This document shows, in pieces, positions 5,741 to 42,899 of a DNA stretch of 64,000 bases. The first letter of the stretch is position 1; every line of letters begins with the position of its first letter. The stretch covers positions 46,174-110,173 of the forward strand of contig JBBIQY010000001.1 in the NCBI GenBank assembly GCA_037442085.1. Direction: 5' to 3'. A program made the translations under genes and the position numbers. The notes beneath the pieces are model-generated. The model did not search any database. It was not told the DNA's origin and saw only the letters and a program-made list of their open reading frames with translations. The stretch is from Anaerolineae bacterium (GTDB taxonomy: Bacteria; Chloroflexota; Anaerolineae; Anaerolineales; UBA6663).

Positions 5741-7129
5741 ATGTTGGACTATTCACTGGGGATCGGCATCATCGCGGCTTTGCTCCTGTTGAACGGCTGG
5801 CTCTCCGCGGCGCGCGCCGCGCTGGTGAACGCCTCGCGCGGGCGGCTGCGGCAGATGGCGCAGGAGGGCGTGGGCGGCGCGGCGCGCGCGCTGCGCGTGG
5901 CGGAAGATGCCACGGCGCTGCTCTCCACGATGCGCTTCTCGCAAACGTTCTGCCGCTTTGGCGTGGCCGGCCTGGCGGCCCTGCTGTTCACCCGCCGCCT
6001 GACGGAAGCCTTCGGCGACGGCCTGTCCCTGGATCCGCGCTTCCAGTTCCTGGTCTTCTTCCTCATCCTGCTGGTCGGCACGATGATCGTGGTCAGCCTC
6101 GGCGAATTCCTGCCGGAAGCGCTGGCCCTGCGTGCGCCGGAGGACGCGGCGCTGTTTTTTGCGCCGTCGGTGGCGTTTTTGGAATGGCTGCTCGCGCCGG
6201 TGGTGCGCGTCTCGCTCTGGCTGGCGTCGCGGGCCGCGCCCTCCCTCAAGGGCCAGCGCCTGCCGCTCGTCACCGAAGAGGAAATCAAGACGCTGGTGGA
6301 CGCCGGCGAGGAGGGCGGCGCTATCGAAGAAGACGAAAAAGAGATGATCTACTCGATCTTCGAGATCAGCGACACCTGGGCGCGCGAATTGATGGTGCCG
6401 CGCATTGATGTGTTGGCCCTCGATGTGAACACGCCGCTGCCGGAAGCGGTTGACGCGCTGCTGGCCGCCGGCCACAGCCGCGCCCCTGTGTACGAGCACT
6501 CGATTGATAACATCCTCGGCGTGCTCTACGTCAAAGACCTGCTCAAACAGTGGCGCGGCGGCAACCTCGACGTCAGCCTGCGCGCGCTGCTGCGCCCGGC
6601 TTACTTTGTGCCGGAAACCAAGAAGGCCAACGAACTCCTGGCCGAGCTGCAGCAGAAGCGCATCCACATGGCCATCGTGGTGGACGAATACGGCGGCACG
6701 GCCGGCCTGGTTACGCTGGAGGACATCGTTGAAGAGATCGTCGGCGACATCCGTGACGAGTATGACACCAACGAAGAGGCCTACGTCGAACGCGTCAGCG
6801 ATACGGAATACGTCTTCGACGCGCGCCTGGACCTGGACGAGGTGAACGACCTGCTCGGGCTCAATCTGTCGTCCGAAGACGCCGACTCGCTGGGCGGCTT
6901 TATCTACGGCCAACTCGGCCACATCCCGACCCTGGGTGAAAAAGTGCTGGCCTCGGGCGTCACCTTCGAAGTGCTGATGGTGACGGGCCGCCGTATTCGC
7001 AAAGTACGGGCGACCCTGCCAGCCCCGCTGCGGCCCGAGTCGCCCGAAGTGCCCGAACCGCGTAAAATCAATGGCACCCGGCCGCTGACGCATCCGACGC
7101 TGCCGGCTGAAAGCCCGACGAATGAATGA
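5741..7129 (+). CDS. CNNM/CorC-family membrane protein (DUF21 TM domain, tandem CBS, CorC_HlyC)
   Basis: Hydrophobic N-terminal DUF21-like region, then MVPRIDV...CBS pair...[35 protein letters not shown], then a C-terminal transporter-associated domain. The start is uncertain (GTG 5705 or ATG 5741). Confidence 0.85.
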
Positions 7130-7547
7130 CGCCGACATCGCCCATCTGGCTGCCCGCGCCCTGGAGGCCCGCCGATGGGCGTATGCGCCCTACTCGCGCT
7201 ACCGCGTCGGCGCGGCTTTGCTGGCGACCTCCGGCAAAACCTACGACGGCTGCAATGTGGAAAACGCTGCCTACCCGGCGACGATCTGCGCCGAACGTGT
7301 GGCCGTGTTCAAGGCCATCTCCGAGGGCGAGCGTCAGTTCACGGCCATCGCCGTAGCCACCGAAAACGGCGGCTCGCCGTGCGGCGCGTGCCGCCAGGTG
7401 CTGGCCGAGTTTGCGCCCGACCTGACCGTGTTCATCGTCAATGGGCGCGGCGACGTGACAAAACAAACCACAGTCCGCGAACTGCTGCCCGACCACTTTG
7501 GGCCGGCACAGTTGAGCGTGACCGGCGACGATGAGCGACCAGCCTGA
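7122..7547 (+). CDS. cdd: Cytidine deaminase
   Basis: 141 aa with zinc-ligand motifs CAERVAVF and PCGACRQVLAEF. The start overlaps the CorC stop. Confidence 0.9.
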   Translation: MNDADIAHLAARALEARRWAYAPYSRYRVGAALLATSGKTYDGCNVENAAYPATICAERVAVFKAISEGERQFTAIAVATENGGSPCGACRQVLAEFAPDLTVFIVNGRGDVTKQTTVRELLPDHFGPAQLSVTGDDERPA

Positions 7548-8280
7548 ACCGAAACCCGACAGTACGCCCGAACCCGGCGGATTGAATGTGAGCGGTGGCC
7601 GCGATGTCAACGTCGGCGGCGACGTGGCCGGGCGCGACGTGGTCAAGACCACGACGACCATCACCGGCTTCAGCGAGCAGGCCGTGCAGCGTTTGCTGCT
7701 CATAGTTGGCGCATTGGTCTTCGTCACGGCAGCCTGCTTTTTTTCCGGCGGGCTGGCCGTCGGCTTCTTCGCTTTCGATGCGCTCAACAAACAGGTCGGC
7801 TCTTCACAGGAAGCGGCTCTGCGGTTTCAGGCCGGCCTCAACCAGCTCAACGCCCTTCAGCCCGGTCAGCCGTTCACCTTTGCCTTCAGCGAAGATGAGA
7901 TCAGTTCCTATGTGCGCTTCATTGCCGGTCCGCAGCTGGGTTTTGCGCCGGATAGCGGCCGGGCGCGCCTGGTGACGGATGCAGTTAGCGGTGAGACCCG
8001 GATCGTCATCGCCGGCCAGCTGCGCGACGCCGGCAACTTGCCCGTGGTCGCCACGCTCGACCTGCAGAACACGCCGGGCGCGCCTTTCCGCATCCGCTCG
8101 GCGGCGGCACAGGTGCTCAACACCGGCACAGCCTTTGGCTGGGTCGTCGTGCCCACACCGATAATTCAGCCGGTGCAGGATCGGCTCAATACGTTGCTGG
8201 GTGAGGTGACGCTGACCAGGGCCGTCAGCGACAACGACCCCGTGAACCCGACCTGGCAAATCAGCGGGGTTGTGCGATGA
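7531..8280 (+). CDS. Hypothetical single-pass membrane protein
   Basis: 249-aa ORF that overlaps the cdd stop and the next gene's start. N-terminal G/D/V-rich motif LNVSGGRDVNVGGDVAGRDVV, then a TM segment (LLLIVGALVFVTAACFFSGGLAVGFFAF). I recognise no family. Confidence 0.6.
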   Translation: MSDQPEPKPDSTPEPGGLNVSGGRDVNVGGDVAGRDVVKTTTTITGFSEQAVQRLLLIVGALVFVTAACFFSGGLAVGFFAFDALNKQVGSSQEAALRFQAGLNQLNALQPGQPFTFAFSEDEISSYVRFIAGPQLGFAPDSGRARLVTDAVSGETRIVIAGQLRDAGNLPVVATLDLQNTPGAPFRIRSAAAQVLNTGTAFGWVVVPTPIIQPVQDRLNTLLGEVTLTRAVSDNDPVNPTWQISGVVR

Positions 8281-12837: not shown

Positions 12838-14790
12838 ATGTCCGTCATAGACGACATCAAGGCCCGCATTGATACGGTGGAGCTGATTTCGCAGACGGTC
12901 AAGCTGCGCAAGTCGGGCCGCGCCTACATGGGGTTGTGCCCCTTCCACGTACACAAGAACAACACGCCCTCCTTCGCCGTCTGGCCGGATACAGGCACCT
13001 GGCGCTGCTTTGGGCAGTGCAACGAGGGCGGCGACATCTTCAAGTTCGTCATGAAGCGCGACGGGCTGGACTTCTTCGGCGCGCTGCAACTGCTGGCCGC
13101 ACAGGCCGGCGTCGAACTCAAGCCGCGCACGCCCGAGCAGATCGAGCAGGACGATCACCTCCAGCACCTGCGCCAGTTGCTCGAGGCTGCCGCCGTTTAT
13201 TACCATCACCTGCTCAAGAACGCGCCGCAGGCCCAGCCGGCCCGCGACCACCTGGCGCAGCGCGGCCTGACCGACAAGGCCATCGAGATGTTTCAGCTCG
13301 GCTACGCGCTCGATGCCTGGGATGCGGCGCTCAACTACTTCAAAAGTAAAGACTACACGATTGATGATTTGCTCGCGGCCGGCCTGATTATCGAGAAAGA
13401 GTTGTCCAATCAGCAATCAGCAATCAGCAATCAGCAATTGGTCCGTCACTTTGACCGCTTCCGCGATCGGCTGATGATCCCGGTGCGCGATGAGCAGGGC
13501 CGGATGACGGGCTTTCAGGCGCGCGCCCTGCACCCGGACGCCATCCCGAAGTTCATGAACAGCCCGCAGACCGCGCTCTTCGACAAGGGCCGCACGCTGT
13601 TCGGCCTGCACCTGGCCCGCAAGGCCATCCGTGAGGCAGGCGCGGCCGTCGTCGTCGAGGGCAATTTGGACGTTATCGCCGCGCACCAGGCCGGTTTCAG
13701 CAACGTGGTCTCGTCGCAGGGCACGGCCCTGACCGAGCACCAGTTGCGTCTGCTCAAGAAACACGCCAAGCGCATCCTGCTGGCGCTGGACGCAGACGAG
13801 GCCGGCGACGCCGCCACGTTGCGTGGGCTGATGGTAGCGCGCGAGGCCTTCGATCGCGAAAGCGAGGTCAGTTTCGACCCGCGCGGGCTGGTGCGGGTGG
13901 AGGGCCGGCTGGGCGCGGACATTCGCATCATGACGCTGCCCCCCGGCCTCGACCCGGACGACGTGATCCGGCGCAGCCCGGAAGAGTGGCGGCGCTGCGT
14001 GGAGGCCGCCGAACCGGTCGTGGAGTACGTCATCCGCGTGCTGACCGCCGGCAAGAACCTGGATGATCCGAAGACCAAGGCCGAAGTGGCCGACGCTGTG
14101 CTGCCGCTGATTGACGATGTGGCCGACTCGATCGAGCGCGATACGTACCGGCAGAAGCTGGCGCGCCTGCTCAAAATCAACGAAAACCTTCTGGCCTCGC
14201 GGACGCCGAAGCCAGCCCGGCGCCCAACCGCGCCGCGACCGGCCGTCGCACCCCAGCCTCCCACTGCCAGGTTCGAAGCCTCCAAGCTGGAAACGTATTG
14301 CCTCAGCCTGCTTCTGCGCCAGCCCGAGGCCCTCTACCAGCTCGACCGGGACTTACAGTCGCTCGGCCTGGACAAGCTCGCTCCGGACGATTTCATGGAC
14401 ACCGAGCTGCAGCTGATCCTGCAGGCTTTGCACGCCGCCCTCGAGCAAATTGACGTTGAACCTTCCGAACATTTGCGGCATAATCTCGGCGCGCCATTCC
14501 AGGCTCGGCTGGAGGCGCTGCTGGCCGCCGACGTGCGCCAGGCCGATGATCTGAAGCTCAAAGACGATTTGCTGAATTCTGCGTTGCGGCTGCGTCGGCG
14601 CGCGCTGGAGCAGCAGTTGAACCGGCTGCGTTTCCTGGCCGAAGACGCGCGCGAACAAGGCGATATGCTGGCTGAACTCTATCAGGCGGAGCTGGTGCGG
14701 TTGGCGAGCGAGCGCGCCAAGGTGGACCGCGCTTTTTCGCCCCGGACGCGCAGCAAAGGCGCCCTCCCCAAGCCCGTCGCGCGACTCTAG
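12838..14790 (+). CDS. dnaG: DNA primase
   Basis: CHC2 zinc finger [31 protein letters not shown]-polymerase core [15 protein letters not shown]...[27 protein letters not shown]...[18 protein letters not shown] at 12797-12802 lies upstream. Confidence 0.9.
13407..13434 (+). repeat. Four perfect tandem heptamers CAATCAG (plus partial fifth CAATTG) inside dnaG
   Basis: Read directly from the sequence: caatcag x4 at 13407-13434. Encodes [11 protein letters not shown] in the loop preceding the conserved FDRFRDR motif. Confidence 0.9.
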
Positions 14791-17882: not shown

Positions 17883-17892
17883 TTCTGACTCC

Positions 17893-17920
17893 AAATTCCT
17901 AACTCCTAATTCCTAATTCC
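17893..17920. repeat. Four tandem heptamers (AAATTCC TAACTCC TAATTCC TAATTCC) in the nuoA-nuoB spacer
   Basis: Read directly from the sequence. The A/T-rich array ends 10 nt before the nuoB ATG (17931). Confidence 0.85.
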
Positions 17921-18416: not shown

Positions 18417-18419
18417 TCA

Positions 18420-18457
18420 TTGGGTGATTGAGTGATTGAGCGATTGAAATCACCCAA
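18420..18457. repeat. Hairpin (10-bp perfect arms) enclosing three tandem octamers in the nuoB-nuoC spacer
   Basis: TTGGGTGATT (18420-18429) is the reverse complement of AATCACCCAA (18448-18457). Between them lie GTGATTGA GTGATTGA GCGATTGA (18424-18447). Confidence 0.8.
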
Positions 18458-18484
18458 TCATCAGTCGCTAAATTTCCGATTAGC

Positions 18485-19036: not shown

Positions 19037-19114
19037 CTAAACCGAGGAACCGGCGAAGGCATTGCCCTCGCCAGTCCCGGATCAACCCGCCAAGGCGAGG
19101 TTTAGAGATAAGCT
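19037..19114 (+). repeat. 78-nt structured intergenic repeat, copy 1 (nuoC-nuoD spacer)
   Basis: CTAAACCGAGG...GGCGAAGGCATTGCCCTCGCCAG...GGTTTAGAGATAAGCT. It aligns without gaps, at roughly three quarters identity by eye, to 37069-37146. It has terminal inverted CTAAAC/GTTTAG and a central GGCGAAGGC-att-GCCYTCGCC palindrome. Confidence 0.75.
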
Positions 19115-19141
19115 CTAAGGCTGACTCCTGACCCTTGACTC

Positions 19142-21006: not shown

Positions 21007-22344
21007 ATGCCGTACATCCTTTTGCGACACCGCGACACCCCCGACATTCACAAGCTGGATGTCTATCTGGCGCATGGCGGGTTCGAGGCGTTCAAGAAGG
21101 CCGTTACGCAGCTAACGCCGCAGCAGGTGATTGACGAGGTCAAGGCCTCGGGCCTGCGCGGGCGCGGCGGCGCGGGCTTCCCCACCGGCCTAAAGTGGTC
21201 GTTCCTGACCAAGGACTCCTTCCCGCGCTATGTCACCATCAACTCGGACGAGTCCGAGCCAGGCACGTTCAAGGACCGCGAGATCATGACCCGGAACCCC
21301 TTCCAGTTCCTGGAGGGGGCGATGATCACGGCCTACGCCTCGCGGGCCAACGTGATCTACAACTACGTGCGCGGCGAATACTGGGACATCGTCGCCGGCC
21401 TCGAGAAGTGCGTGGCGGAGCTGTACGCGCGCGGCTTCCTGGGTCGGGACTTGTTTGGCACGAGCTACTCCCTCGACTTCTATCATCACCTGGGCGCGGG
21501 CGCGTACATCTGCGGCGAAGAGAGCGCGCTGCTCGAGTCCCTCGAAGGCAAACTCGGCCAGCCGCGCCTCAAACCGCCCTTCCCGGCGGATAAGGGCCTG
21601 TACAACAAGCCTACGGTCGTCAACAACACCGAGACGGTGACCAACGTGCCCTACATCCTGCAGCACGGCGCGGCGGAGTTCAAGAAATACGGCACCGAGA
21701 AAAGCCCCGGCACGAAAATCTTCTGCCTCTCGGGCCGGATCAACAAACCGGGCAACTATGAACTGCCGCTGGGCGTGACCCTGCGTGAGCTGCTCTTTAC
21801 GCAGGGCGGCGGCCTGCCGGGCAACAAAAAAGTGAAGGCCGTGATGCTGGCCGGCGCGTCCTCGGTGGTGCTGCCGGTGGATGAGTCCGTCCTGGATCTG
21901 CCGCTTGATTATGAATCGGTGGCAGCCAAGGGCGCGATGCTCGGCTCGGCCTCGGTCATCGTGCTGGATGAGACGGTGGACCTGGCCTGGGTGACGCTCA
22001 AGACCACCCGCTTCTTCAAACACGAGTCGTGCGGCAAGTGCACCCCCTGCCGCGAGGGCACATACTGGATGCTCAATATCCTGGAGCGCCTTAACCGCAA
22101 CGAGGTGAACAAGGCCGACGTGGACCTGCTGGCCAACGTCGCTGCGCAGATCCAGAACAAATGCCTGTGCCCGCTGGGCGAATTCGCGGTGACGCCGATG
22201 CTCTCAGCGCTCAAGGCCTTCCGCGCCGACTTCGACGCACATACCCGTGATGCTGCGCCGAAGAAAGCGGCCCCGACGGCGAAGCCTGCTCCGGCGCCAC
22301 GGCCTGTCGCGAAAAAGGAAGAGGCGCTGGCTAAAGGCCGATGA
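21007..22344 (+). CDS. nuoF: NADH-quinone oxidoreductase subunit F
   Basis: 445 aa with the FMN/NADH site GLRGRGGAGFPTGLKW and the N3 cluster ESCGKCTPCREG. Unusual Lys/Ala/Pro-rich C-terminal tail (AAPKKAAPTAKPAPAPRPVAKKEEALAKGR). Confidence 0.93.
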   Translation: MPYILLRHRDTPDIHKLDVYLAHGGFEAFKKAVTQLTPQQVIDEVKASGLRGRGGAGFPTGLKWSFLTKDSFPRYVTINSDESEPGTFKDREIMTRNPFQFLEGAMITAYASRANVIYNYVRGEYWDIVAGLEKCVAELYARGFLGRDLFGTSYSLDFYHHLGAGAYICGEESALLESLEGKLGQPRLKPPFPADKGLYNKPTVVNNTETVTNVPYILQHGAAEFKKYGTEKSPGTKIFCLSGRINKPGNYELPLGVTLRELLFTQGGGLPGNKKVKAVMLAGASSVVLPVDESVLDLPLDYESVAAKGAMLGSASVIVLDETVDLAWVTLKTTRFFKHESCGKCTPCREGTYWMLNILERLNRNEVNKADVDLLANVAAQIQNKCLCPLGEFAVTPMLSALKAFRADFDAHTRDAAPKKAAPTAKPAPAPRPVAKKEEALAKGR

Positions 22345-22449
22345 GTTTATGGCTGATCTTGTGACCCCGACGATTTATGAATTTCATCCTTCATCCTTCG
22401 TCCTTCATCCTTCGATGAGTTTATGGCTGATCTTGTAACCCTGACGATT
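22339..22449 (+). repeat. 37-bp direct duplication of the nuoF-stop/nuoG-start junction flanking a 4x heptamer array
   Basis: cgatgagtttatggctgatcttgtGacccCgacgatt (22339-22375) is repeated at 22413-22449 with 2 mismatches. Between the copies lie tatgaattt plus CATCCTT CATCCTT CGTCCTT CATCCTT (22385-22412). Confidence 0.9.
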
Positions 22450-24897
22450 GACGGCGTCAAAGTCTCCGTGCCGAAGGGCACCCTGATTGTAGATGCCGCC
22501 AAGCGTATTGATAACGATATCCCCGTCTTTTGCTACCATCCCAAGCTGAAGCCGGTGGGGATGTGCCGGATGTGCCTGGTGGAAGTGGGCCGCGTGCAGC
22601 GAGACCGCGTCACCGGGCAGGTGGCGCTGGACGAGCAGGGTCATCCCAAGCTCGCCTTTGGCCCGAAGCTGGAGACTGCCTGCACCACGCCCGTCGAAGA
22701 GGGCATGGTCGTCATCGGCAACAGCCTCAAGGTGAAAGAGGGCCGCGACGACATCATTGAGTTTCTCCTGACTTCGCACCCGCTCGACTGCCCGATCTGC
22801 GACAAGGGCGGCGAGTGTCCATTGCAGAACCTCACCCTGCGCCACGGCCCCGGCCAGAGCCGCTTTCTCTTCGAGGAGAAAATGCGTCTGGAGAAGCACG
22901 TGCCCCTCGGCCGGCCGGATGAAGCCCTGATCTACCTTGATCGAGAGCGCTGCATCCAGTGCGCGCGCTGTACGCGTTTCTGCGACGAAATCGTGGACGA
23001 CCACGTGCTCGGCTTCTATGAGCGCGGCCGCAAGCTCGAAATCATCACCTTCTCCGAGCCGGGCTTCGACAGCAAGTTCAGCGGCAACACCACCGACATC
23101 TGCCCGGTAGGCGCGCTGACCACGCGCGACTTCCGCTTCGGCGCGCGCCCTTGGGAGTTGATGTCGGCGGCTTCGATCTGCAATCACTGCCCGGTCGGCT
23201 GCAATGTGGCGCTCAGCAGTCGGCGCGAAGCGAAGAGCGGCGGCCGGCCCGTCATCAAGCGCGTCATGCCGCGCCAGAACGAGCAGGTCAACGAGATCTG
23301 GATATGCGATAAGGGCCGCTTTGGCCACCACTTTGTGGAAAGCGCCGAACGGCTGCGCACGCCCCTCATCCGCCGGAACGGCGCGCTGACGCCGGCGACC
23401 TGGGCGGAGGCGCTCGCCCTCATCGGCGAGAAGTTCAGGGCGGCAGGCCGAGGGCTGACCGCCCTGCTCGGCGACCGACTGGCGAATGAAGACTTGTTTG
23501 CGGTGAAGAAGGTGGTCCAGGGACTCGGCGGCGGGGTCGAGTTGAACTCGAACATGGGCGGCGGCGATCTGGTGCAGCTGGTCGGCGTCGGCGTGGGCAC
23601 AAACTTCTCCACCCTGGGCAAGGGCGCGGCCATCCTGGTGATCGCCTCCGATCTGGAAGAGGAAGCGCCGATCTGGTGGCTGCGCGTGAAGCAGGCCGCC
23701 GACCGGGGCGCGACGCTCATCGTCGCCAACGGCCGCCCGACCAAGCTCGACCGGGCGGCGACGTTCAAGGTACGCTACGCGTATGGCCACGAAGTGGCCA
23801 CTGTGCTCGGCATGTTGGTGGCCGGCTCGAGCGAGGCGGCGGATGCGTTCGCCAAAGCCGAGGATGCCCTGATCCTGTTTGGTCGCGAAGGCCTGGACTT
23901 CGCCGGCAGCACGGCGCTGGCTCAGGCCTGCGCCAACCTGCTCATCACCACCCAACACTACGGCAGACCGAATAACGGCCTGATCGCGGTCTGGCCGCGC
24001 GCCAACACGATGGGCGCGTGGGATATGGGCGTGCTCCCCTCGGGCCGCAGCCTGGAGGCTGCCTTCGCCAATGCGTCCGCAGCCTGGATCATCGCCGCCG
24101 ACCCGGTGGGTGACGGCGCGCTGGAGGTGCTCCCTGCCTTCACCGTTGTGCAGGAGTTATTCCTCACTGAGACGGCCAGACGTGCCGACGTCGTTCTGCC
24201 GGCGGCGGCCTGGGCCGAGCGCGAGGGCACGTACACCAACGGCGAACGGCGTGTGCAGCGCTTCTACCCGGCGGTCCCCGCCAAGGGCGAGAGCAAGCCG
24301 GACTGCGAGATCGCGGCCCTCATTGGCGCGCAGATCGGCGTCGGCGTGCCGCGCTTTCCGGCGCAAATCTTTCTGGAGATTGCGAAGACCGTGCCGGCAT
24401 ACGTCGGTCTGGACTACGGCGAGCTGGCGAGAGTGGAGAAGCAGTGGCCAGACGTGGGCGGGCGCGACTCGTATTACGGCGGCACATCCTATAATAACGA
24501 GCAGGGCCTGGGCGTGCCGCTCAAGTCCGGCGCCGAGCGCGGGATAGCGCTCACACCGCACGAAGTCAAATCTCCCGTCCCCACGCCGGCGGGCCTGACG
24601 CTCATCCCTACGACCTGGCTGTATGACCGGGGCACGACTTTTCAGCCATCACGTTTGATGCATCCGCGCGTGCCGCCGCCGCACCTCGTCGTGCATCCCG
24701 CCGACGCGGCGCAACTGGGCGTGGCGGATGGTGATGAAGTGGCGGTGAGTTTCGACGGTGCGAACGTCGTGGTGAAGGCGCGGGTGGCGGAGCACGCGCC
24801 GGAAGGCGTGGTGTTGATGCCGCGCGGCCTCGGTGTCCCCACACCCGCCGAACCAACGCCGGCGATGATTGCGCCGGCGGTTGCCGTTGTAAGCTGA
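22423..24897 (+). CDS. nuoG: NADH-quinone oxidoreductase subunit G
   Basis: 824 aa. N-terminal 2Fe-2S ferredoxin fold (CYHPKLKPVGMCRMCLVEV), HPLDCPICDKGGECPLQ and CIQCARCTRFC. The C-terminal part is molybdopterin-oxidoreductase-like. Confidence 0.93.
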   Translation: MADLVTLTIDGVKVSVPKGTLIVDAAKRIDNDIPVFCYHPKLKPVGMCRMCLVEVGRVQRDRVTGQVALDEQGHPKLAFGPKLETACTTPVEEGMVVIGNSLKVKEGRDDIIEFLLTSHPLDCPICDKGGECPLQNLTLRHGPGQSRFLFEEKMRLEKHVPLGRPDEALIYLDRERCIQCARCTRFCDEIVDDHVLGFYERGRKLEIITFSEPGFDSKFSGNTTDICPVGALTTRDFRFGARPWELMSAASICNHCPVGCNVALSSRREAKSGGRPVIKRVMPRQNEQVNEIWICDKGRFGHHFVESAERLRTPLIRRNGALTPATWAEALALIGEKFRAAGRGLTALLGDRLANEDLFAVKKVVQGLGGGVELNSNMGGGDLVQLVGVGVGTNFSTLGKGAAILVIASDLEEEAPIWWLRVKQAADRGATLIVANGRPTKLDRAATFKVRYAYGHEVATVLGMLVAGSSEAADAFAKAEDALILFGREGLDFAGSTALAQACANLLITTQHYGRPNNGLIAVWPRANTMGAWDMGVLPSGRSLEAAFANASAAWIIAADPVGDGALEVLPAFTVVQELFLTETARRADVVLPAAAWAEREGTYTNGERRVQRFYPAVPAKGESKPDCEIAALIGAQIGVGVPRFPAQIFLEIAKTVPAYVGLDYGELARVEKQWPDVGGRDSYYGGTSYNNEQGLGVPLKSGAERGIALTPHEVKSPVPTPAGLTLIPTTWLYDRGTTFQPSRLMHPRVPPPHLVVHPADAAQLGVADGDEVAVSFDGANVVVKARVAEHAPEGVVLMPRGLGVPTPAEPTPAMIAPAVAVVS

Positions 24898-26115: not shown

Positions 26116-26613
26116 ATGTTCGACATTCTCAAAGGATATTTCACGACTGCGAAGAACGTCGTCAAGCCTCCGGAGACATACGAGTATCCCGAGGTCAAGA
26201 AGCCGGTGGCCCAGCGTTTCAAGGGCCGTCATGAACTGAAGCGTTACGACAACGGGCTGGAGAAGTGTATTGGCTGTGCGTTGTGCGCGGCGGCCTGCCC
26301 CGCAGACGCCATCTTTGTGGAGGCCGGCGAGAACACCGACGAGGCGCGTTACTCGCCCGGCGAGCGCTACGCCAGCACCTACGAGATCAACCTGCTGCGC
26401 TGCATCTATTGCGGTTTCTGCGAGGACGCCTGCCCGACCGAAGCTATCGTGCTGGAGAACAACTACGAGCTATCCTACTACGACCGGCGCTCGTCCATCA
26501 TCACCAAGGAGCAGTTGCTCGTGCCCGTGCCGGAAGGCGGTCGGCCCACACCGCAGCAGGTGCCGGAGCATGCCTTTGACCGGGCCATCCCGGATATGAA
26601 CAACCCCGATTGA
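26116..26613 (+). CDS. nuoI: NADH-quinone oxidoreductase subunit I
   Basis: 165 aa with two 4Fe-4S ferredoxin motifs, CIGCALCAAACP and CIYCGFCEDACP. Confidence 0.93.
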   Translation: MFDILKGYFTTAKNVVKPPETYEYPEVKKPVAQRFKGRHELKRYDNGLEKCIGCALCAAACPADAIFVEAGENTDEARYSPGERYASTYEINLLRCIYCGFCEDACPTEAIVLENNYELSYYDRRSSIITKEQLLVPVPEGGRPTPQQVPEHAFDRAIPDMNNPD

Positions 26614-26691
26614 TTTTCGATTTTTGATGGCTGATTTCTGATTGCCAGTCAATCTGCAATCCGCAATCTGCGATCTGAAATCTGCAATCAG
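26608..26691. repeat. 84-nt block of twelve in-phase heptamers filling the nuoI-nuoJ spacer
   Basis: Left six units: gattgat tttcgat ttttgat ggctgat ttctgat tgccagt. Right six units: CAATCTG CAATCCG CAATCTG CGATCTG AAATCTG CAATCAG (26650-26691). CTGATTG at 26638-26644 is the exact reverse complement of CAATCAG at 26685-26691. Confidence 0.85.
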
Positions 26692-31205: not shown

Positions 31206-31457
31206 ATGCACCACTCAGCGCTGGGTGACTTTGCGACGCGAGAAGCAGAGCAGTTCTATATCGAAAGTCTGCGCCGGAAGAGCGTCGAGCAACGCGTCCG
31301 CATCGCGATGGAGCTTTGGCAAATGGCAGTCGAGATGGCCTGCGCCGGGGTTCGACGCGATCATCCTGACTGGTCTGAGGCTCAGGTGCGCGGCGAAGTC
31401 GCTCGGCGCATCCTGCTGCTCGATGGAACAACACCGCCTGCTGCTGCAAGCAATTGA
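31206..31457 (+). CDS. Small helical hypothetical protein (83 aa), upstream partner of the nucleotidyltransferase
   Basis: ATG 13 nt after the nuoM stop. Translation: ...SVEQRVRIAMELWQMAVEMACAGVRRDHPDWSEAQVRGEVARRILLL. The 3' end overlaps the next ORF by 35 nt. G+C is lower than in the flanks. An antitoxin-like role is inference only. Confidence 0.55.
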   Translation: MHHSALGDFATREAEQFYIESLRRKSVEQRVRIAMELWQMAVEMACAGVRRDHPDWSEAQVRGEVARRILLLDGTTPPAAASN

Positions 31458-31971
31458 AGCCCTGGACCAGGCCGGCATTCCTTACGCCATTACCGGTTCA
31501 TGGGCTTCGATTTCCTACGGGATGCCGCGAACCACGCACGATATTGATATTGTCGCAGACTTGACTGTGGATCAAGCTCGACAACTCGCGCAGGCATTTC
31601 CACCGCCATTTTATGCTGATGCTGTATGGATCGAAGAAGCGGCAGCGCTGAAACAGTTTTTCAATGTCATCGATCCGACAACCGGCCTCAAGGTTGACTT
31701 TTGGCCGTTGGAGGACACGGACTTTGCGCGGGAGCGTTTCGCCCGGCGACAGCGTGTGTCGGTCTTTGGCAAAGACATTTGGATGCTGTCGCCAGAAGAT
31801 GTGATCTTGTCCAAGCTGCTTTGGTATCAGCAATCGGAAAGCGATACGCAATGGCGTGACATTGTGGGCGTCTGGCGTGTCCAGCAGGAAAAACTTGATC
31901 TCGACTACCTGCGCGGCTGGGCCGTGCGCCTGGGTTTAACAGATCTGCTCGAGCGCGTCACCCAAAGCTGA
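31423..31971 (+). CDS. Minimal nucleotidyltransferase-fold protein (MNT/AbiEii-like), 182 aa
   Basis: Starts MEQHRLLLQAIEALDQAGIPYAITGSWASISYGMPRTTHDIDIV, which is G-S-x13-D-x-D, the Pol-beta NTase signature. The in-frame region upstream (from 31225) is Ser/Arg/Cys-rich junk. Hand-counted G+C is 48-53% in 31501-31680. Confidence 0.7.
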   Translation: MEQHRLLLQAIEALDQAGIPYAITGSWASISYGMPRTTHDIDIVADLTVDQARQLAQAFPPPFYADAVWIEEAAALKQFFNVIDPTTGLKVDFWPLEDTDFARERFARRQRVSVFGKDIWMLSPEDVILSKLLWYQQSESDTQWRDIVGVWRVQQEKLDLDYLRGWAVRLGLTDLLERVTQS

Positions 31972-36131: not shown

Positions 36132-36971
36132 CTACGGTTTGTCTTTGCCACTGCGGTCGTCGTCATCGTCGTCATCGTCATCGTCGTCATCATCACCGCC
36201 GCGGCCACGTCCTCTATGATCGTCGTCGTCACCCCTTCGGTCATCGTCGCTGCCGCCGCGACCACTGTGGTCATCATCGCTGTCGGCTTTCTCGATCTCG
36301 CGAGCGATGACCGAGCCGTCGGCCTGGAGGCGGCCTTCGATCTTGACGGCGCTGCCGACCTGGGGGTTGCCCTTGATCTCGGTCTGGGGGGTGACGATGA
36401 CGCGGACGCCGTTGACCGTCCACACTTCGCCGCTGATGGCGCTGACGGTGCCGGTGAACTCGACCTCGTTGCCGGCCACAGGCGTCCGGGTCGCGGCCGG
36501 GAGGGCCTTGATCTCGCGAGCGATGACCGAGCCGTCGGCCTGGAGGCGGCCTTCGACCTTGACGGCGCTGCCGACCTGGGGGTTGCCCTTGATCTCGGTC
36601 TGGGGGGTGACGATGACGCGGACGCCGTTGACCGTCCACACTTCGCCGCTGATGGCGCTGACGGTGCCGGTGAACTCGATCTCTGCTCTAGCCATAGCGG
36701 TCGGGGTGGGGACGGGCGTGCCCGTCATGCCGGGCTGCGGAGTATGGGTTGGCTCGACGGTGCCGGTGCCGCCAATTTGCGTATGCGTCGGCTCAAGCGT
36801 TCGAGTCAGGCTGTCATCCATGCCACGGCTTGCCGGCTGGCGGGCCGCCGATCGCAGGACGTTGGCCTCATCTGGAAGTGTCATGGGCGCGCAGGCGGCG
36901 AGCAGCAGACCCGCAAAGAGCGGAAGCACTCGAAAGAGACGCCAGAAGGATGAAAAGACGGGGTTAAACAT
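36132..36971 (-). CDS. Secreted protein with two near-identical DUF5666-like modules and an Asp/Arg/Gly tail containing a 13-Asp run
   Basis: 279 aa. N-terminal signal/TM (LFRVLPLFAGLLLAACAP, lipobox-like). Duplicated module EFTGTVSAISGEVWTVNGVRVIVTPQTEIKGNPQVGSAVK.EGRLQADGSVIAREI. C-terminal tail DSDDDHSGRGGSDDDRRGDDDDHRGRGRGGDDDDDDDDDDDDDRSGKDKP. Confidence 0.8.
   Translation of the reverse strand: MFNPVFSSFWRLFRVLPLFAGLLLAACAPMTLPDEANVLRSAARQPASRGMDDSLTRTLEPTHTQIGGTGTVEPTHTPQPGMTGTPVPTPTAMARAEIEFTGTVSAISGEVWTVNGVRVIVTPQTEIKGNPQVGSAVKVEGRLQADGSVIAREIKALPAATRTPVAGNEVEFTGTVSAISGEVWTVNGVRVIVTPQTEIKGNPQVGSAVKIEGRLQADGSVIAREIEKADSDDDHSGRGGSDDDRRGDDDDHRGRGRGGDDDDDDDDDDDDDRSGKDKP
36294..36683. 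repeat. Tandem duplication, period 216 bp (72 codons), inside the DUF5666 gene
   Basis: 36294-36467 and 36510-36683 (174 bp each) differ at only 2 positions by eye. The 42-bp linker between them is unique. Confidence 0.9.
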
Positions 36972-40316: not shown

Positions 40317-42899
40317 CACGACTCCCAGCGGCGCGGTCGGGCCGAGCTGCGCCAGGCGCGGGTCGAGCAGAGGCAGCGTGCGTTGGGTAAAGGCATCATA
40401 CCAGCCGAACGTCAATTGTGCGGGGCCGGGTGCAGCGTCGGCGGGGACGGTGAGGGTGTAGCGATCGCGCAAGCGGCTCCCGGCGATCCACTTGAGTGTG
40501 GGCAGGCCGCCGCCCACCGGCACGGTGTCCAGCTGCGCCCGCCAGCCGCTCCCGGTCAAATCCACTTTCGCGACCAGGTCCCGCACCAGCGAACGTGCGG
40601 CGATGAATTCCACATCCACCGTGACGGTCTCGCCGGGACGGGCCGTGGCCGGCCAGAACTCGGCGCGGGTGAGGGTGAGCTGGTCGCCGAAGGGAACGTA
40701 GCGGGAGGTGGTGGAAAGTAGGGGGTGGAAGGGAGATAAGGCGGGCGCCGAGTCCGAAATGGTCGTGAGGTAACCGGCCGGCGTTTGCCAGTGCTGGAAG
40801 AAGCGCGGCGACTCGGGTAGCGAGTAATCGGCGTCTTGCCCAATGAGGTTGCCGTGCTCAGCGACGCGGAACTGCGGCTGAGTCGTGACGGGCGGCGCGG
40901 CGCGCGGCGCGACGGTTAAGGTGGCCAGCGCGGCCTCGGCGAGCCGAGCGCCGTTCGGCAGATAGGCGCCGGCGACCAGGGTGTAAGTCCCCGGCGCAGC
41001 CTCCGGCAGCAGCGTCACCGTGTACCGTTCGGCCAGTATCTCGCCCGCAACGTAGCGCGCGGCGGGCACGCTGATATCCTGCTGGCCGTAGAGCAGACCG
41101 TCCGGCCCGAGAGCGTGGACGAAGAGGCTGAGGTCACGCGGCGCGCCGTTGACGCGCCAGGCGGCGATCAGGTCAACGGATGAGCCGGATGAGAGGATGG
41201 AGGGAATGGAGAGTGGTCGGTGGCCGAGAAAGTCAAGGTCGCCGAAAGTCTGCGCGCCTCGTAAAGCGGGAGGGGTTTCGGTGAGAGGTTGCGCGTAAGC
41301 GCGCCAGGCAGGGAAAGGCAGGGTCGCGAGTGGCGCGAAGCGATAGCCGCTGGCTGCGTACTCATTCGAGAAAAAACTAACGACGAGGACGGGGCGCGCC
41401 GGCAGATTAAGCCCGATCTCATCCACCCAGTTCTGGGCGTACGAGATGCCGCGCGGCACGACGTAGCGCACTTCCACATCCGGGCGGCGGCCCTCCACCT
41501 CTCGCAGATACCAGAGCGGCGTTGCCCAGTGCCAGGGCGCGAGGATGATTGCGCCATGCGGCGCTTGCTCCAGCAGCGTCTGTGCGAACTCGCGCGTGGA
41601 GTCATCCTGCGCCAACTGTCGGTAGCCGGGGAAGGTTGCCCGAAACTGAAGGCCGAGACCGCCGAGCGCCAGCGCCAGCAGCGGCAGCGCCAGGAGGGCG
41701 CGGGCCGGCGGGTGGAAATCCGGCGCTGAACCGGCAGGCGGCGCAGCCGGTGTGAAGTCCAGCCAGCGCAGTATCTCGGCGAAACCAAAGCCCATGAACA
41801 CGGCCAGCAGCACGAAGGCGGGCAGCAGGTACTCGGTCGTCTGCGGCGCAGCGTAGGTGATGGAGACGAAAGTGTGCGCGAGAAACGCGATCAGCAACGC
41901 GACGCCCAATCCTCGATCTCGGCTGACGACGCTTACCGCTCCGAACGCCGCCAGGGCCAGCAGGCTCCAGTGCCACTGAAAGTTGAGGAGCACCCAAAGC
42001 ACACGCAGCCGGTCAGGGAACAACTCCGGCGTGGCGAAGGCCAGCACCGCGCTAAGAAAGTTCCGGGCGAGCACCTGATCGAGGAAGCCCTCCCACGTGC
42101 CCAGGTTGGGCGGCGCGCCGTAGGCGTTGGCGCGGAAGGGGAAGTAGGCCCACGCCAGGAAAGGCAGCAGCCCGAACAGCAACGGCCACAACTGCCGTGC
42201 CATGAGCGCCAGGCCGAGGCGCTTCGACAGGCCGCCCGCGTACACCAGCCGCGCCACCGACCAATCGCTCTGTGCGTACACGAGCAGAGCGTACAGGCCG
42301 AGCGTTGCCACGAGAAAGATCGTCGAGCCGTGGTGCGACACGGCCAGGCCGGAGGCGAAAGCGAAGAGAGCAAGGGCCCTCGCCCCGGCGTCCTCTCTCC
42401 TCAATAGGGAAAGGGTGACGTACCGGGCGAGGCCAAGCAGGGCGAGGGCGACGGCGCCGGCGGAGAACATGCGCACATTGGCGGTGGTAGCCTGCGCCCA
42501 AAACGTGGTCGCGAAGCCTAGGGCCAGCGCGGTGAAAAGCCCGGCCAGCCTGGATCCCGTCCACGCGCGCACCGAGCCGCTGACGCCGACCAGGGCCAGC
42601 GCAGCCAGCAGCGCGGAAAGGACGTTGATGGCGACCGCCGGCGAGACAAAGGGCAGGCGCGAGATGAGCCAGCTCATCAGGGTGTAAGTGGCGAAGCCGG
42701 GCGGGTGCGCCACGCCGAGCAGCGCGCCGGTGATCTGAAACTCGCCCGAATCGGCGGGGAGCAGGCCGGGCGCCAGGGTGAAGGTATACAAGCCAAGCGC
42801 AGCCAGAAAAAGGAGGAAGGAAGAAGGGGGAAGGAAGAAGGGCCGGCCCCTTCCTGTTTCCTCCTTCTCTCTCCCTTCTGCCTTAGGCCACTGCTTCAT
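40302..42899 (-). CDS. DUF2723-family (TMEM260/PMT-like GT-C) polytopic membrane glycosyltransferase with large C-terminal extracytoplasmic domain
   Basis: 865 aa. N-terminal signature TFTLAPGLLPADSGEFQITGALLGVAHPPGFATYTL matches the DUF2723 D-x-G-E / HPPG motif. More than 10 TM segments, then about 400 aa of non-membrane region. The start is uncertain (it overlaps the GT4 stop by 17 nt). Confidence 0.75.
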   Translation of the reverse strand: MKQWPKAEGREKEETGRGRPFFLPPSSFLLFLAALGLYTFTLAPGLLPADSGEFQITGALLGVAHPPGFATYTLMSWLISRLPFVSPAVAINVLSALLAALALVGVSGSVRAWTGSRLAGLFTALALGFATTFWAQATTANVRMFSAGAVALALLGLARYVTLSLLRREDAGARALALFAFASGLAVSHHGSTIFLVATLGLYALLVYAQSDWSVARLVYAGGLSKRLGLALMARQLWPLLFGLLPFLAWAYFPFRANAYGAPPNLGTWEGFLDQVLARNFLSAVLAFATPELFPDRLRVLWVLLNFQWHWSLLALAAFGAVSVVSRDRGLGVALLIAFLAHTFVSITYAAPQTTEYLLPAFVLLAVFMGFGFAEILRWLDFTPAAPPAGSAPDFHPPARALLALPLLALALGGLGLQFRATFPGYRQLAQDDSTREFAQTLLEQAPHGAIILAPWHWATPLWYLREVEGRRPDVEVRYVVPRGISYAQNWVDEIGLNLPARPVLVVSFFSNEYAASGYRFAPLATLPFPAWRAYAQPLTETPPALRGAQTFGDLDFLGHRPLSIPSILSSGSSVDLIAAWRVNGAPRDLSLFVHALGPDGLLYGQQDISVPAARYVAGEILAERYTVTLLPEAAPGTYTLVAGAYLPNGARLAEAALATLTVAPRAAPPVTTQPQFRVAEHGNLIGQDADYSLPESPRFFQHWQTPAGYLTTISDSAPALSPFHPLLSTTSRYVPFGDQLTLTRAEFWPATARPGETVTVDVEFIAARSLVRDLVAKVDLTGSGWRAQLDTVPVGGGLPTLKWIAGSRLRDRYTLTVPADAAPGPAQLTFGWYDAFTQRTLPLLDPRLAQLGPTAPLGVVEIRD

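Follow-up and report, generated by a model that had tools for sequence, protein, structure and literature searches.

A 37-nt duplication of the nuoF-nuoG junction with a heptamer array between its copies in an uncultured Anaerolineae lineage

The operon junction between nuoF and nuoG, the genes for subunits F and G of NADH-quinone oxidoreductase, was analysed in a 64-kb stretch of DNA (contig JBBIQY010000001.1; this whole stretch is called the window) from an uncultured lineage of Anaerolineae (Chloroflexota) known from metagenome-assembled genomes (MAGs). At this junction, 37 nucleotides (nt) around the start of nuoG are present twice, a tandem array of 7-nt units lies between the two copies, and the upstream copy carries a second, decoy start codon that opens a short open reading frame (ORF). 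In our reading, to which we give a probability of roughly 55%, the insert is a lineage-specific structural mutation at an indel hot spot, neither a mobile element nor a conserved regulatory module, and its net effect is most likely near neutral. The features of the junction are listed below.

21007..22344, plus strand: nuoF, NADH-quinone oxidoreductase subunit F, 445 amino acids (aa), with Pfam Complex1_51K, SLBB and NADH_4Fe-4S
22324..22331, plus strand: GCGCTGGC, microhomology at the putative deletion breakpoint, from the junction comparison with the relatives L086/L087 (L086 4320-4566)
22339..22375, plus strand: copy 1 of the junction repeat, with the nuoF stop, GTTT, the decoy ATG at 22349 and 8 more nuoG-like codons
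22349..22438, plus strand: decoy ORF, 29 codons and TAA, encoding MADLVTPTIYEFHPSSFVLHPSMSLWLIL, +2 out of frame with nuoG
22376..22412, plus strand: spacer between the copies, 37 nt, TATGAAT and then the heptamer array; unique, no donor found
22383..22414, plus strand: heptamer array in the TTCATCC phase, from Tandem Repeats Finder (TRF), the repeat search and the exact-repeat scan
22413..22449, plus strand: copy 2 of the junction repeat, a 10-nt leader and nuoG codons 1-9 (the functional gene)
22423..24897, plus strand: nuoG, subunit G, 824 aa, intact, with Pfam Fer2_4, NADH-G_4Fe-4S_3 and Molybdopterin

The identities of the genes rest on these Pfam domains and on the neighbouring genes, which lie in the standard nuoB-C-D-E-F-G-H order. 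The TGA of nuoF (22342-22344) falls inside copy 1, with the final two codons and the stop at 22339-22344. The ATG of nuoG lies in copy 2 and begins the conserved N-terminus MADLVTLTIDG.

The repeat search recovered the two copies as a direct repeat with 35 of 37 positions identical (95%) and with copy starts 74 nt apart. The mismatches are G22363/A22437 and C22368/T22442, the longest exact run common to the copies is 24 nt, and copy 1, spacer and copy 2 together span 111 nt. The original prediction had described this 37-nt duplication with its 2 mismatches and 74-nt spacing, and the same structure was also met in other assemblies; the coordinates and sequences that it gave for the repeat, the stop, both ATGs, the array and the decoy ORF were all exact. 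It had further placed the array CATCCTT CATCCTT CGTCCTT CATCCTT, in the right phase, at 22385-22412 between the copies, and its proposal that the duplication creates a decoy start holds, with the decoy sitting in the full ancestral context. Copy 1 is preceded by GCTAAAGGC, the native left-hand context, which matches the nuoG leader of L086/L087. Copy 2 runs on as GACGGCGTC..., the native right-hand context, which is the same in all relatives. At the second mismatch, copy 1 has CCG (Pro), and copy 2 and every close relative inspected have a Leu codon; the Pro codon of copy 1 is a derived change, as expected for an unconstrained pseudo-start.

When the 64 kb were scanned for exact local repeats of at least 14 nt within 400 nt, the hits were heptamer-type arrays, the junction duplication, a 216-bp tandem and a few 14-15-mers, and the junction repeat and the 216-bp tandem were the only sizeable local duplications in the window. 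A chance origin of the junction repeat is excluded, since 18 of 20 block shuffles gave no local repeat of at least 14 nt.

It is very unlikely that the structure was produced during assembly. All sources are short-read metagenome assemblies, possibly from one sample, which speaks for an error of this kind. However, the junction is base-for-base identical in the window, in the NCBI MAG contig DAOTZK010000076.1 (GCA_034434215.1) and in the independently built Logan assembly of SRR11582161, and the copies differ at 2 positions and have no common exact run longer than 24 nt. Besides, the whole structure would fit in one ordinary short read. Identical NuoF and NuoG are also found on a 135,979-bp contig. 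By coordinate arithmetic, DAOTZK010000076.1 seems to end near window position 36457, inside the 216-bp tandem, so that the window would stem from a further assembly.

Closer relatives were collected via NuoF homologs (7987 at E<=1e-100), and 594 NuoG relatives were confirmed. The closest are L086 and L087, with 95.2% nt identity to the window in nuoF and 95.7% in nuoG; the corresponding values are 87% and 82% for L088 and 85% and 84% for L083. All four have a single junction copy and no CATCCTT array, and single copies are also present in L004, L003, L005 and L085. The comparison that had been suggested with the original prediction thus does yield a single-copy, array-free junction in relatives (L086/L087 at ~95.5% nt identity, L083, L004 and others). 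A self-duplicated nuoG start upstream of the gene was found in none of 68 other Anaerolineae loci by an ungapped test and in none of 26 loci by a gapped test, the window being the only positive. Since the relatives are single-copy and no other locus is duplicated, these comparisons show the 74-nt insert as derived and specific to the lineage of the window. Metagenome scans with both copy variants (TTTATGGCTGATCTTGTNACCCNGACGATT) and with the leader and start (AAAGGCCGATGAGTTTATGGCTGA) returned nothing and thus no further same-species alleles. The copies differ at 2 of 37 positions (5.4%), and the fourfold-degenerate divergence between the window and L086 is 10.4%. This suggests that the duplication is not fresh and that it is about as old, in order of magnitude, as the split from L086, with very wide uncertainty, so that the event would be old enough to have met selection.

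The junction as a whole is variable in this clade. Among 80 genome loci with 53-72% NuoG identity, the gap between nuoF and nuoG ranges from -4 to >1400 nt and is mostly -4 to +40 nt, which marks the junction as a hot spot for indels and insertions. The gap of L084 holds a 231-aa S-adenosylmethionine (SAM)-methyltransferase gene (1747-2442; Pfam DOT1, Methyltransf_25), that of L088 is a 423-nt spacer (1878-2300) with two unannotated small ORFs, and that of L085 is a 262-nt spacer (2061-2322). The small ORFs in the L087 and L088 spacers have no Pfam match, and the idea that those of L088 are toxin-antitoxin fragments is accordingly unsupported. Two other candidates near these spacers were rejected. 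One, in L088, would be an additional decoy in decay (ATGGCTGATCTCAACCC, 45 nt before the nuoG of that locus), but its score is equal to, and no better than, the shuffle maximum. The other, in L086, would be a diverged repeat of the nuoF 3' end on the flanks of the 228-nt spacer, and it is not significant (p ~0.1).

The comparison with L086/L087 also bears on the nuoF stop itself. In these two relatives nuoF ends ...KKEEAVAASD with a TAG stop, resembling the (A/V)GD terminus of relatives (8 of the 13 next-closest NuoF homologs have a GD terminus), and a spacer of 228 nt, ending ...gcgttggctaaaggccgaTGAgtttATG, separates it from nuoG. The final part of this spacer, ...gcggcgttggctaaaggccgaTGAgtttATGgctgac..., is the end of a 41-codon ORF (...AALAALAKGR and stop), which is followed by GTTT and then by nuoG. 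In the window, nuoF reads ...KKEEALAKGR and stop, and it is joined at GCGCTGGC to exactly this small-ORF tail. The simplest reading is that a deletion of ~224 nt between GCGGTGGC and GCGTTGGC, which form GCGnTGGC microhomologies, fused nuoF to the tail ALAKGR and its stop in the lineage of the window. The nuoF stop in copy 1 would therefore be a derived and recent acquisition, a point missed in the original prediction, where it figured as the real nuoF stop.

The spacer between the copies retains traces of how its array grew. TRF called a period of 7 with 4.4 copies and 91% matches at 22383-22413. In addition, there is an exact 14-nt tandem (TCCTTCATCCTTCG twice), which the original prediction did not contain: 22387-22400 is repeated as 22401-22414, and the CG at its end already belongs to copy 2, of which it forms the first 2 nt. 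Because the tandem overlaps copy 2 by 2 nt, the expansion came after the array already abutted copy 2, and the array has thus grown in place by slippage across the copy-2 boundary. The tandem shows that no fewer than 14 nt of the spacer, and probably 21 nt, are younger than the junction. If the 14-nt expansion and one 7-nt unit are subtracted, a filler of at most 16 nt is left. As the spacer would originally have been shorter, the equal length of repeat and spacer (37 = 37) would be a coincidence of later growth.

No donor of the spacer was found in the window or in 89 loci, no further copy of the spacer or its array was found elsewhere in the window or in 87 other loci, and the repeat search gave no inverted repeat at the spacer ends. 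Several candidate sources were rejected. The 14-nt matches to GAATTTCATCCTTC on the opposite strand of many loci lie at a similar offset ~6 kb downstream of nuoG and resemble a conserved coding stretch, not a donor. For a fold-back (inverted template-switch) origin, the filler was aligned by hand with the reverse complement of the repeat start, and only ~9/13 positions matched, with gaps, far under the 95% of the direct copies. Under a 74-nt tandem model the spacer should resemble the 37 nt that follow copy 2, but manual alignment gave 7/37 matches.

Arrays of this kind are abundant in the nuo loci of the clade. In 867 kb of nuo loci (86 records), 65 of the 98 tandem arrays with at least 3 copies have period 7, and dozens of different units are represented. 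In the window, arrays lie in the nuoA-B, nuoB-C, nuoC-D, nuoF-G and nuoI-J spacers, usually with 0-12 nt left between the array and the start codon. Besides the array under study, heptamer arrays and one 8-mer array fill nuo spacers at 17890-17920, 18419-18480, 19112-19141 and 26611-26689 in the window and at 6840-6910, 7400-7478, 8085-8136 and 15757-15800 in L089. L089 and the window are 93.7% identical over 21 kb, and their nuo-spacer arrays differ by whole-unit gains or losses, by point changes and sometimes by another unit (nuoA-B TCCTAAT vs CAGTAGC/CTACTGA), which points to a very fast turnover of arrays in operon DNA that is otherwise conserved. The nuoF-G array itself has no orthologue. 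Neither the other window arrays nor the array differences from L089 are flanked by duplications of unique sequence >9 nt.

Some arrays occur in inverted pairs. Such pairs (e.g. CTGATTG... / ...CAATCAG) lie in the nuoF-nuoG spacers of L005 (3920-4000), L008 (3917-4000), L027 (3850-4000) and L051 (3775-3845). Those of L005 and L008 fold as long near-perfect hairpins (-49 kcal/mol, z = -10.3, and -43 kcal/mol, z = -5.3, respectively) and can be described as intergenic hairpins like repetitive extragenic palindromes (REP), made of heptamer repeats. The nuoI-J and nuoB-C arrays of the window fold more weakly (z = -2.4 and -2.7). Outside the nuo spacers, a perfect CAATCAG array of 4.6 copies (window 13407-13438) lies in frame inside dnaG, where it encodes 11 residues and replaces an unrelated 36-nt segment of L089; the length of the dnaG product is preserved despite the array (650 aa in the window vs 649 aa in L089). 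A long, imperfect inverted repeat at window 42806-42885 consists of a purine-rich array (GAAGAAG/GGGGGAAG) and, after it, the pyrimidine-rich complement of this array (CCCCTTCCTGTTTCCTCCTTCTC). It lies close to the 5' end of an 865-aa minus-strand ORF with a TMEM260_N domain.

Turning to translation, the decoy ATG lies 4 nt past the nuoF TGA, and the decoy ORF stops at the TAA of 22436-22438, 13 nt past the last base of the nuoG ATG, with an overlap of 16 nt. The decoy peptide has no Pfam match. No frame of CATCCTT contains a stop, so the decoy ORF is open as chance would predict. Predicted pairing with the anti-Shine-Dalgarno sequence is -4.9 kcal/mol for the decoy and -2.2 kcal/mol for the true nuoG start, calculated with the canonical 16S tail, which may not be that of the host; predicted Shine-Dalgarno (SD) pairing is weak for every nuo gene here and does not discriminate among starts. 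Compared with shuffles, the junction RNA has no excess of structure (z = 0.25; z = -1.2 for the spacer alone), the junction has no Rfam match, and no promoter or terminator was found in it on the coding strand. The true ATG keeps only -10 to +27 of the ancestral initiation region, and the decoy ATG keeps this region complete. In at least nine relatives with nuoF-nuoG spacers of 40-151 nt, several of which are filled with arrays, nuoG is intact behind a spacer with no bridging ORF; evidently, initiation of nuoG can take place by itself behind spacers of this kind, and a relay therefore appears not to be needed for nuoG expression in this family. As for the frame, the spacing of the two ATGs before the 14-nt expansion would have been 60 nt by arithmetic and thus in frame, predicting an N-terminal extension of 20 residues that repeats the first strand of NuoG. 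The present phase avoids this extension, and both out-of-frame phases reach a stop within 16 nt of the ATG.

Put together, these observations suggest the following course of events. The ancestor would have resembled L086/L087, with a small ORF ending ...GCT AAA GGC CGA TGA, then GTTT and then the nuoG ATG. The ~224-nt deletion between the GCGnTGGC microhomologies would have joined nuoF to the small-ORF tail and thereby created a junction with 4 nt between the nuoF stop and the nuoG start. A replication or repair error may then have duplicated 37 nt (-10 to +27 of nuoG) with a short filler of at most 16 nt at the joint, and the filler would have grown by ordinary heptamer slippage, in a 7-nt and then a 14-nt step, to 37 nt. 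In the resulting structure, copy 1, as the ancestral initiation context right behind the nuoF stop, should still recruit ribosomes, which would translate the out-of-frame ORF of 29 codons through the array and end 13 nt inside nuoG. Copy 2 would be the working nuoG start; as at several other nuo genes of this genome, it is preceded by an array that is rich in pyrimidines and unstructured. Probably nuoG is initiated independently at copy 2, and reinitiation after the decoy ORF may add to this. The decoy ORF is thus possibly translated but probably dispensable, being tolerated and not required.

Several points weigh against this course of events. For the initial filler (TATGAATTTCATCCTT), the window and the 89 loci contained no source. 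A plain tandem duplication leaves its copies adjacent, and the filler at the joint is an additional assumption; the equality of repeat and spacer has to be taken as coincidence. Just two lineages are near enough to polarise the events. Moreover, a 37-nt direct repeat is easily deleted by slippage, and its persistence may be a hint of selection, which would favour a functional upstream ORF (uORF).

Such a uORF, selected for regulation, is the most serious alternative, although we hold it to be unlikely. It would hand ribosomes on from the end of nuoF to the start of nuoG through termination-reinitiation, or divert them and attenuate NuoG, with the number of heptamers setting the frame and hence the outcome. 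The geometry would allow termination of nuoF, reinitiation at 22349, termination at 22438 and back-reinitiation at 22423, and the decoy has the complete ancestral leader and better predicted SD pairing than the true start. The duplication, though deletable, has also lasted for a period similar to that since the split from L086, and the frame arithmetic fits, since the earlier 60-nt spacing would place the decoy in frame with nuoG and each out-of-frame phase stops close to the ATG. On the other hand, the structure is confined to one lineage, being found neither in the closest relatives nor in the 68 other loci; relatives with long spacers and no bridging ORF still have an intact nuoG; openness across the array is expected by chance; and 29 codons with 2 substitutions are too few for any selection test.

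The original prediction had also offered the idea that the array inserted with a long target duplication, which would be a clue to how such arrays arise. In this case a pre-formed heptamer cassette, or a break repair that adds heptamers, would have entered at a 37-nt staggered cut, and fill-in of the overhangs would have made both copies. The direct repeats do bracket the insert exactly, the spacer has no homology to the sequence that it displaces, heptamer arrays turn over fast in the clade, with the unit changing even at orthologous spacers, and L003 has a related AAGGATG array at a different nuo spacer. We nevertheless regard this origin as improbable. The insert has neither terminal inverted repeats nor other copies of its spacer, the other arrays in the window have no flanking repeat >9 nt, and the array indels relative to L089 are changes in unit number with no duplicated unique flanks. 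To our knowledge, 37 nt far exceeds the target duplications of known bacterial transposable elements. Above all, the exact 14-nt tandem that crosses into copy 2 reflects growth after the junction had formed. This speaks against the insertion of a ready-made array with duplication of a 37-nt target and favours a local duplication with a short filler and subsequent slippage. There is only a small chance that illegitimate recombination stacked two alleles, one with the compact junction and one with an array directly upstream of CGATGAGTTT-ATG, so that the mismatches would be allelic differences. Arrays in this operon normally adjoin a start codon, the junction is highly polymorphic among relatives, and GTG, GTA and GTC all occur in them at the codon of the first mismatch. 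But an allele with an array upstream of the leader is absent from every collection searched, and the Pro codon of copy 1 is in no relative's nuoG. A more speculative and slightly less probable possibility is that the locus is a snapshot of the birth of a heptamer array in Chloroflexota, in which break repair fills a widely staggered break (hence the 37-nt duplication) and seeds a tract that expands. Array length would then act as a frame-switching device, with an N-terminal extension of NuoG by 20-27 aa in one phase and a relay uORF in the other two, and expression of this respiratory subunit would vary with repeat number.

Under the reading that we prefer, a near-neutral mutation particular to one lineage, the duplication alone carries little weight, as one tolerated structural change in one uncultured lineage. 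It does provide a natural experiment on translational coupling, for the full ancestral nuoG initiation region stands 74 nt upstream of a truncated working copy, and the locus is suited to showing how much leader an SD-poor gene of Chloroflexota needs. The steps of array growth can be ordered at this locus (filler, then +7, then +14), which adds to the evidence for slippage in place over the arrival of a cassette. The wider pattern may outweigh the duplication itself, namely that operon spacers in filamentous Anaerolineae hold abundant heptamer arrays, which turn over fast and often pair into long hairpins.

Other features were noted in the window and in L089. A gene on the minus strand (36132-36971) contains the 216-bp tandem duplication (window 36294-36683; 1.8 copies, 98% identity), by which a domain of ~72 aa (EVEFTGTVSAISGEVWTVNGVRVIVTPQTEIKGNPQVGSAVK...) is duplicated, and an ORF resembling sigma factors of the extracytoplasmic function (ECF) type is adjacent. 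Between nuoM and nuoN (window 31206-31971) there is an 83-aa ORF, whose counterpart in L089 has a Pfam Rv0078B match, and the window has an extra 476 nt relative to L089 (31464-31939), which encode an ORF of ~170 aa not in L089; the two ORFs may be a toxin-antitoxin-like pair lodged in the nuo operon. Conversely, a 149-nt segment upstream of dnaG in L089 (1547-1695, corresponding to window 12753) is not in the window and contains a strong inverted repeat (GGTGACAGTCACCGGGC ... GCCCGGTGACTGTCACC).

Compared with known systems, the insert resembles the products of transposition in that it is exactly flanked by direct repeats. Unlike a transposable element or a miniature inverted-repeat transposable element (MITE), it lacks terminal inverted repeats, coding capacity and further copies, it was partly made in place by slippage, and the length of its flanking repeat is atypical. 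With duplications made by slippage or template switching with filler at the joint, it shares the local scale (74 nt), the direct repeats and the slippage in the same tract, and the nearby 216-bp tandem shows that local duplication events occur in this genome. It differs from simple tandem duplications in that the copies are not adjacent, being separated by the 37-nt spacer, of which at least 14 nt are later slippage, and there is no clear microhomology for the 37-nt unit. Termination-reinitiation couples overlapping or close stop-start pairs in bacterial operons, and short upstream ORFs may relay or divert ribosomes. The distance of 4 nt between nuoF and the decoy and the 16-nt overlap of the decoy with nuoG are within the known range for reinitiation, so the geometry is that of a coupled uORF. 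Unlike regulatory uORFs, the decoy ORF, known here from sequence, appears to be an accidental by-product of the duplication and is not conserved, being absent from L086/L087 and all other loci.

The closest likeness of the array is to intergenic heptameric simple sequence repeats (SSRs), such as the TAACTGA repeats of Beggiatoaceae, Cyanobacteria and Bacteroidetes (PMC4679880) and the GGGAATC and GGGGAYT repeats in Xanthomonas and Nostoc (PMC4692102). The over-representation of heptameric SSRs has been attributed to polymerase slippage (PMC4692102), and the known repeats overlap ribosome-binding sites, form inverted pairs and vary rapidly (PMC4679880, PMC4692102). The arrays of the present clade are likewise short tandems of ~2-6 units of 7 nt, as are the heptanucleotides among the short tandemly repeated repetitive (STRR) sequences of cyanobacteria; they are intergenic, lie near starts with no canonical ribosome-binding site, vary in copy number and sequence between close relatives and sometimes form inverted pairs, and period 7 dominates in these Anaerolineae too. 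They differ in having no single dominant unit and in their host, a GC-rich member of the Chloroflexota, for which the literature searched contained no description of such repeats. The position of the nuoF-nuoG array between the copies of a duplicated gene junction is likewise not reported in PMC4679880 or PMC4692102. With a 7-nt unit repeated head-to-tail at least 3 times, in an intergenic spacer, ending 10 nt before the nuoG ATG and near a start with no strong Shine-Dalgarno sequence, the array belongs with the intergenic heptameric SSRs, and the locus as a whole is a new instance of ordinary processes.

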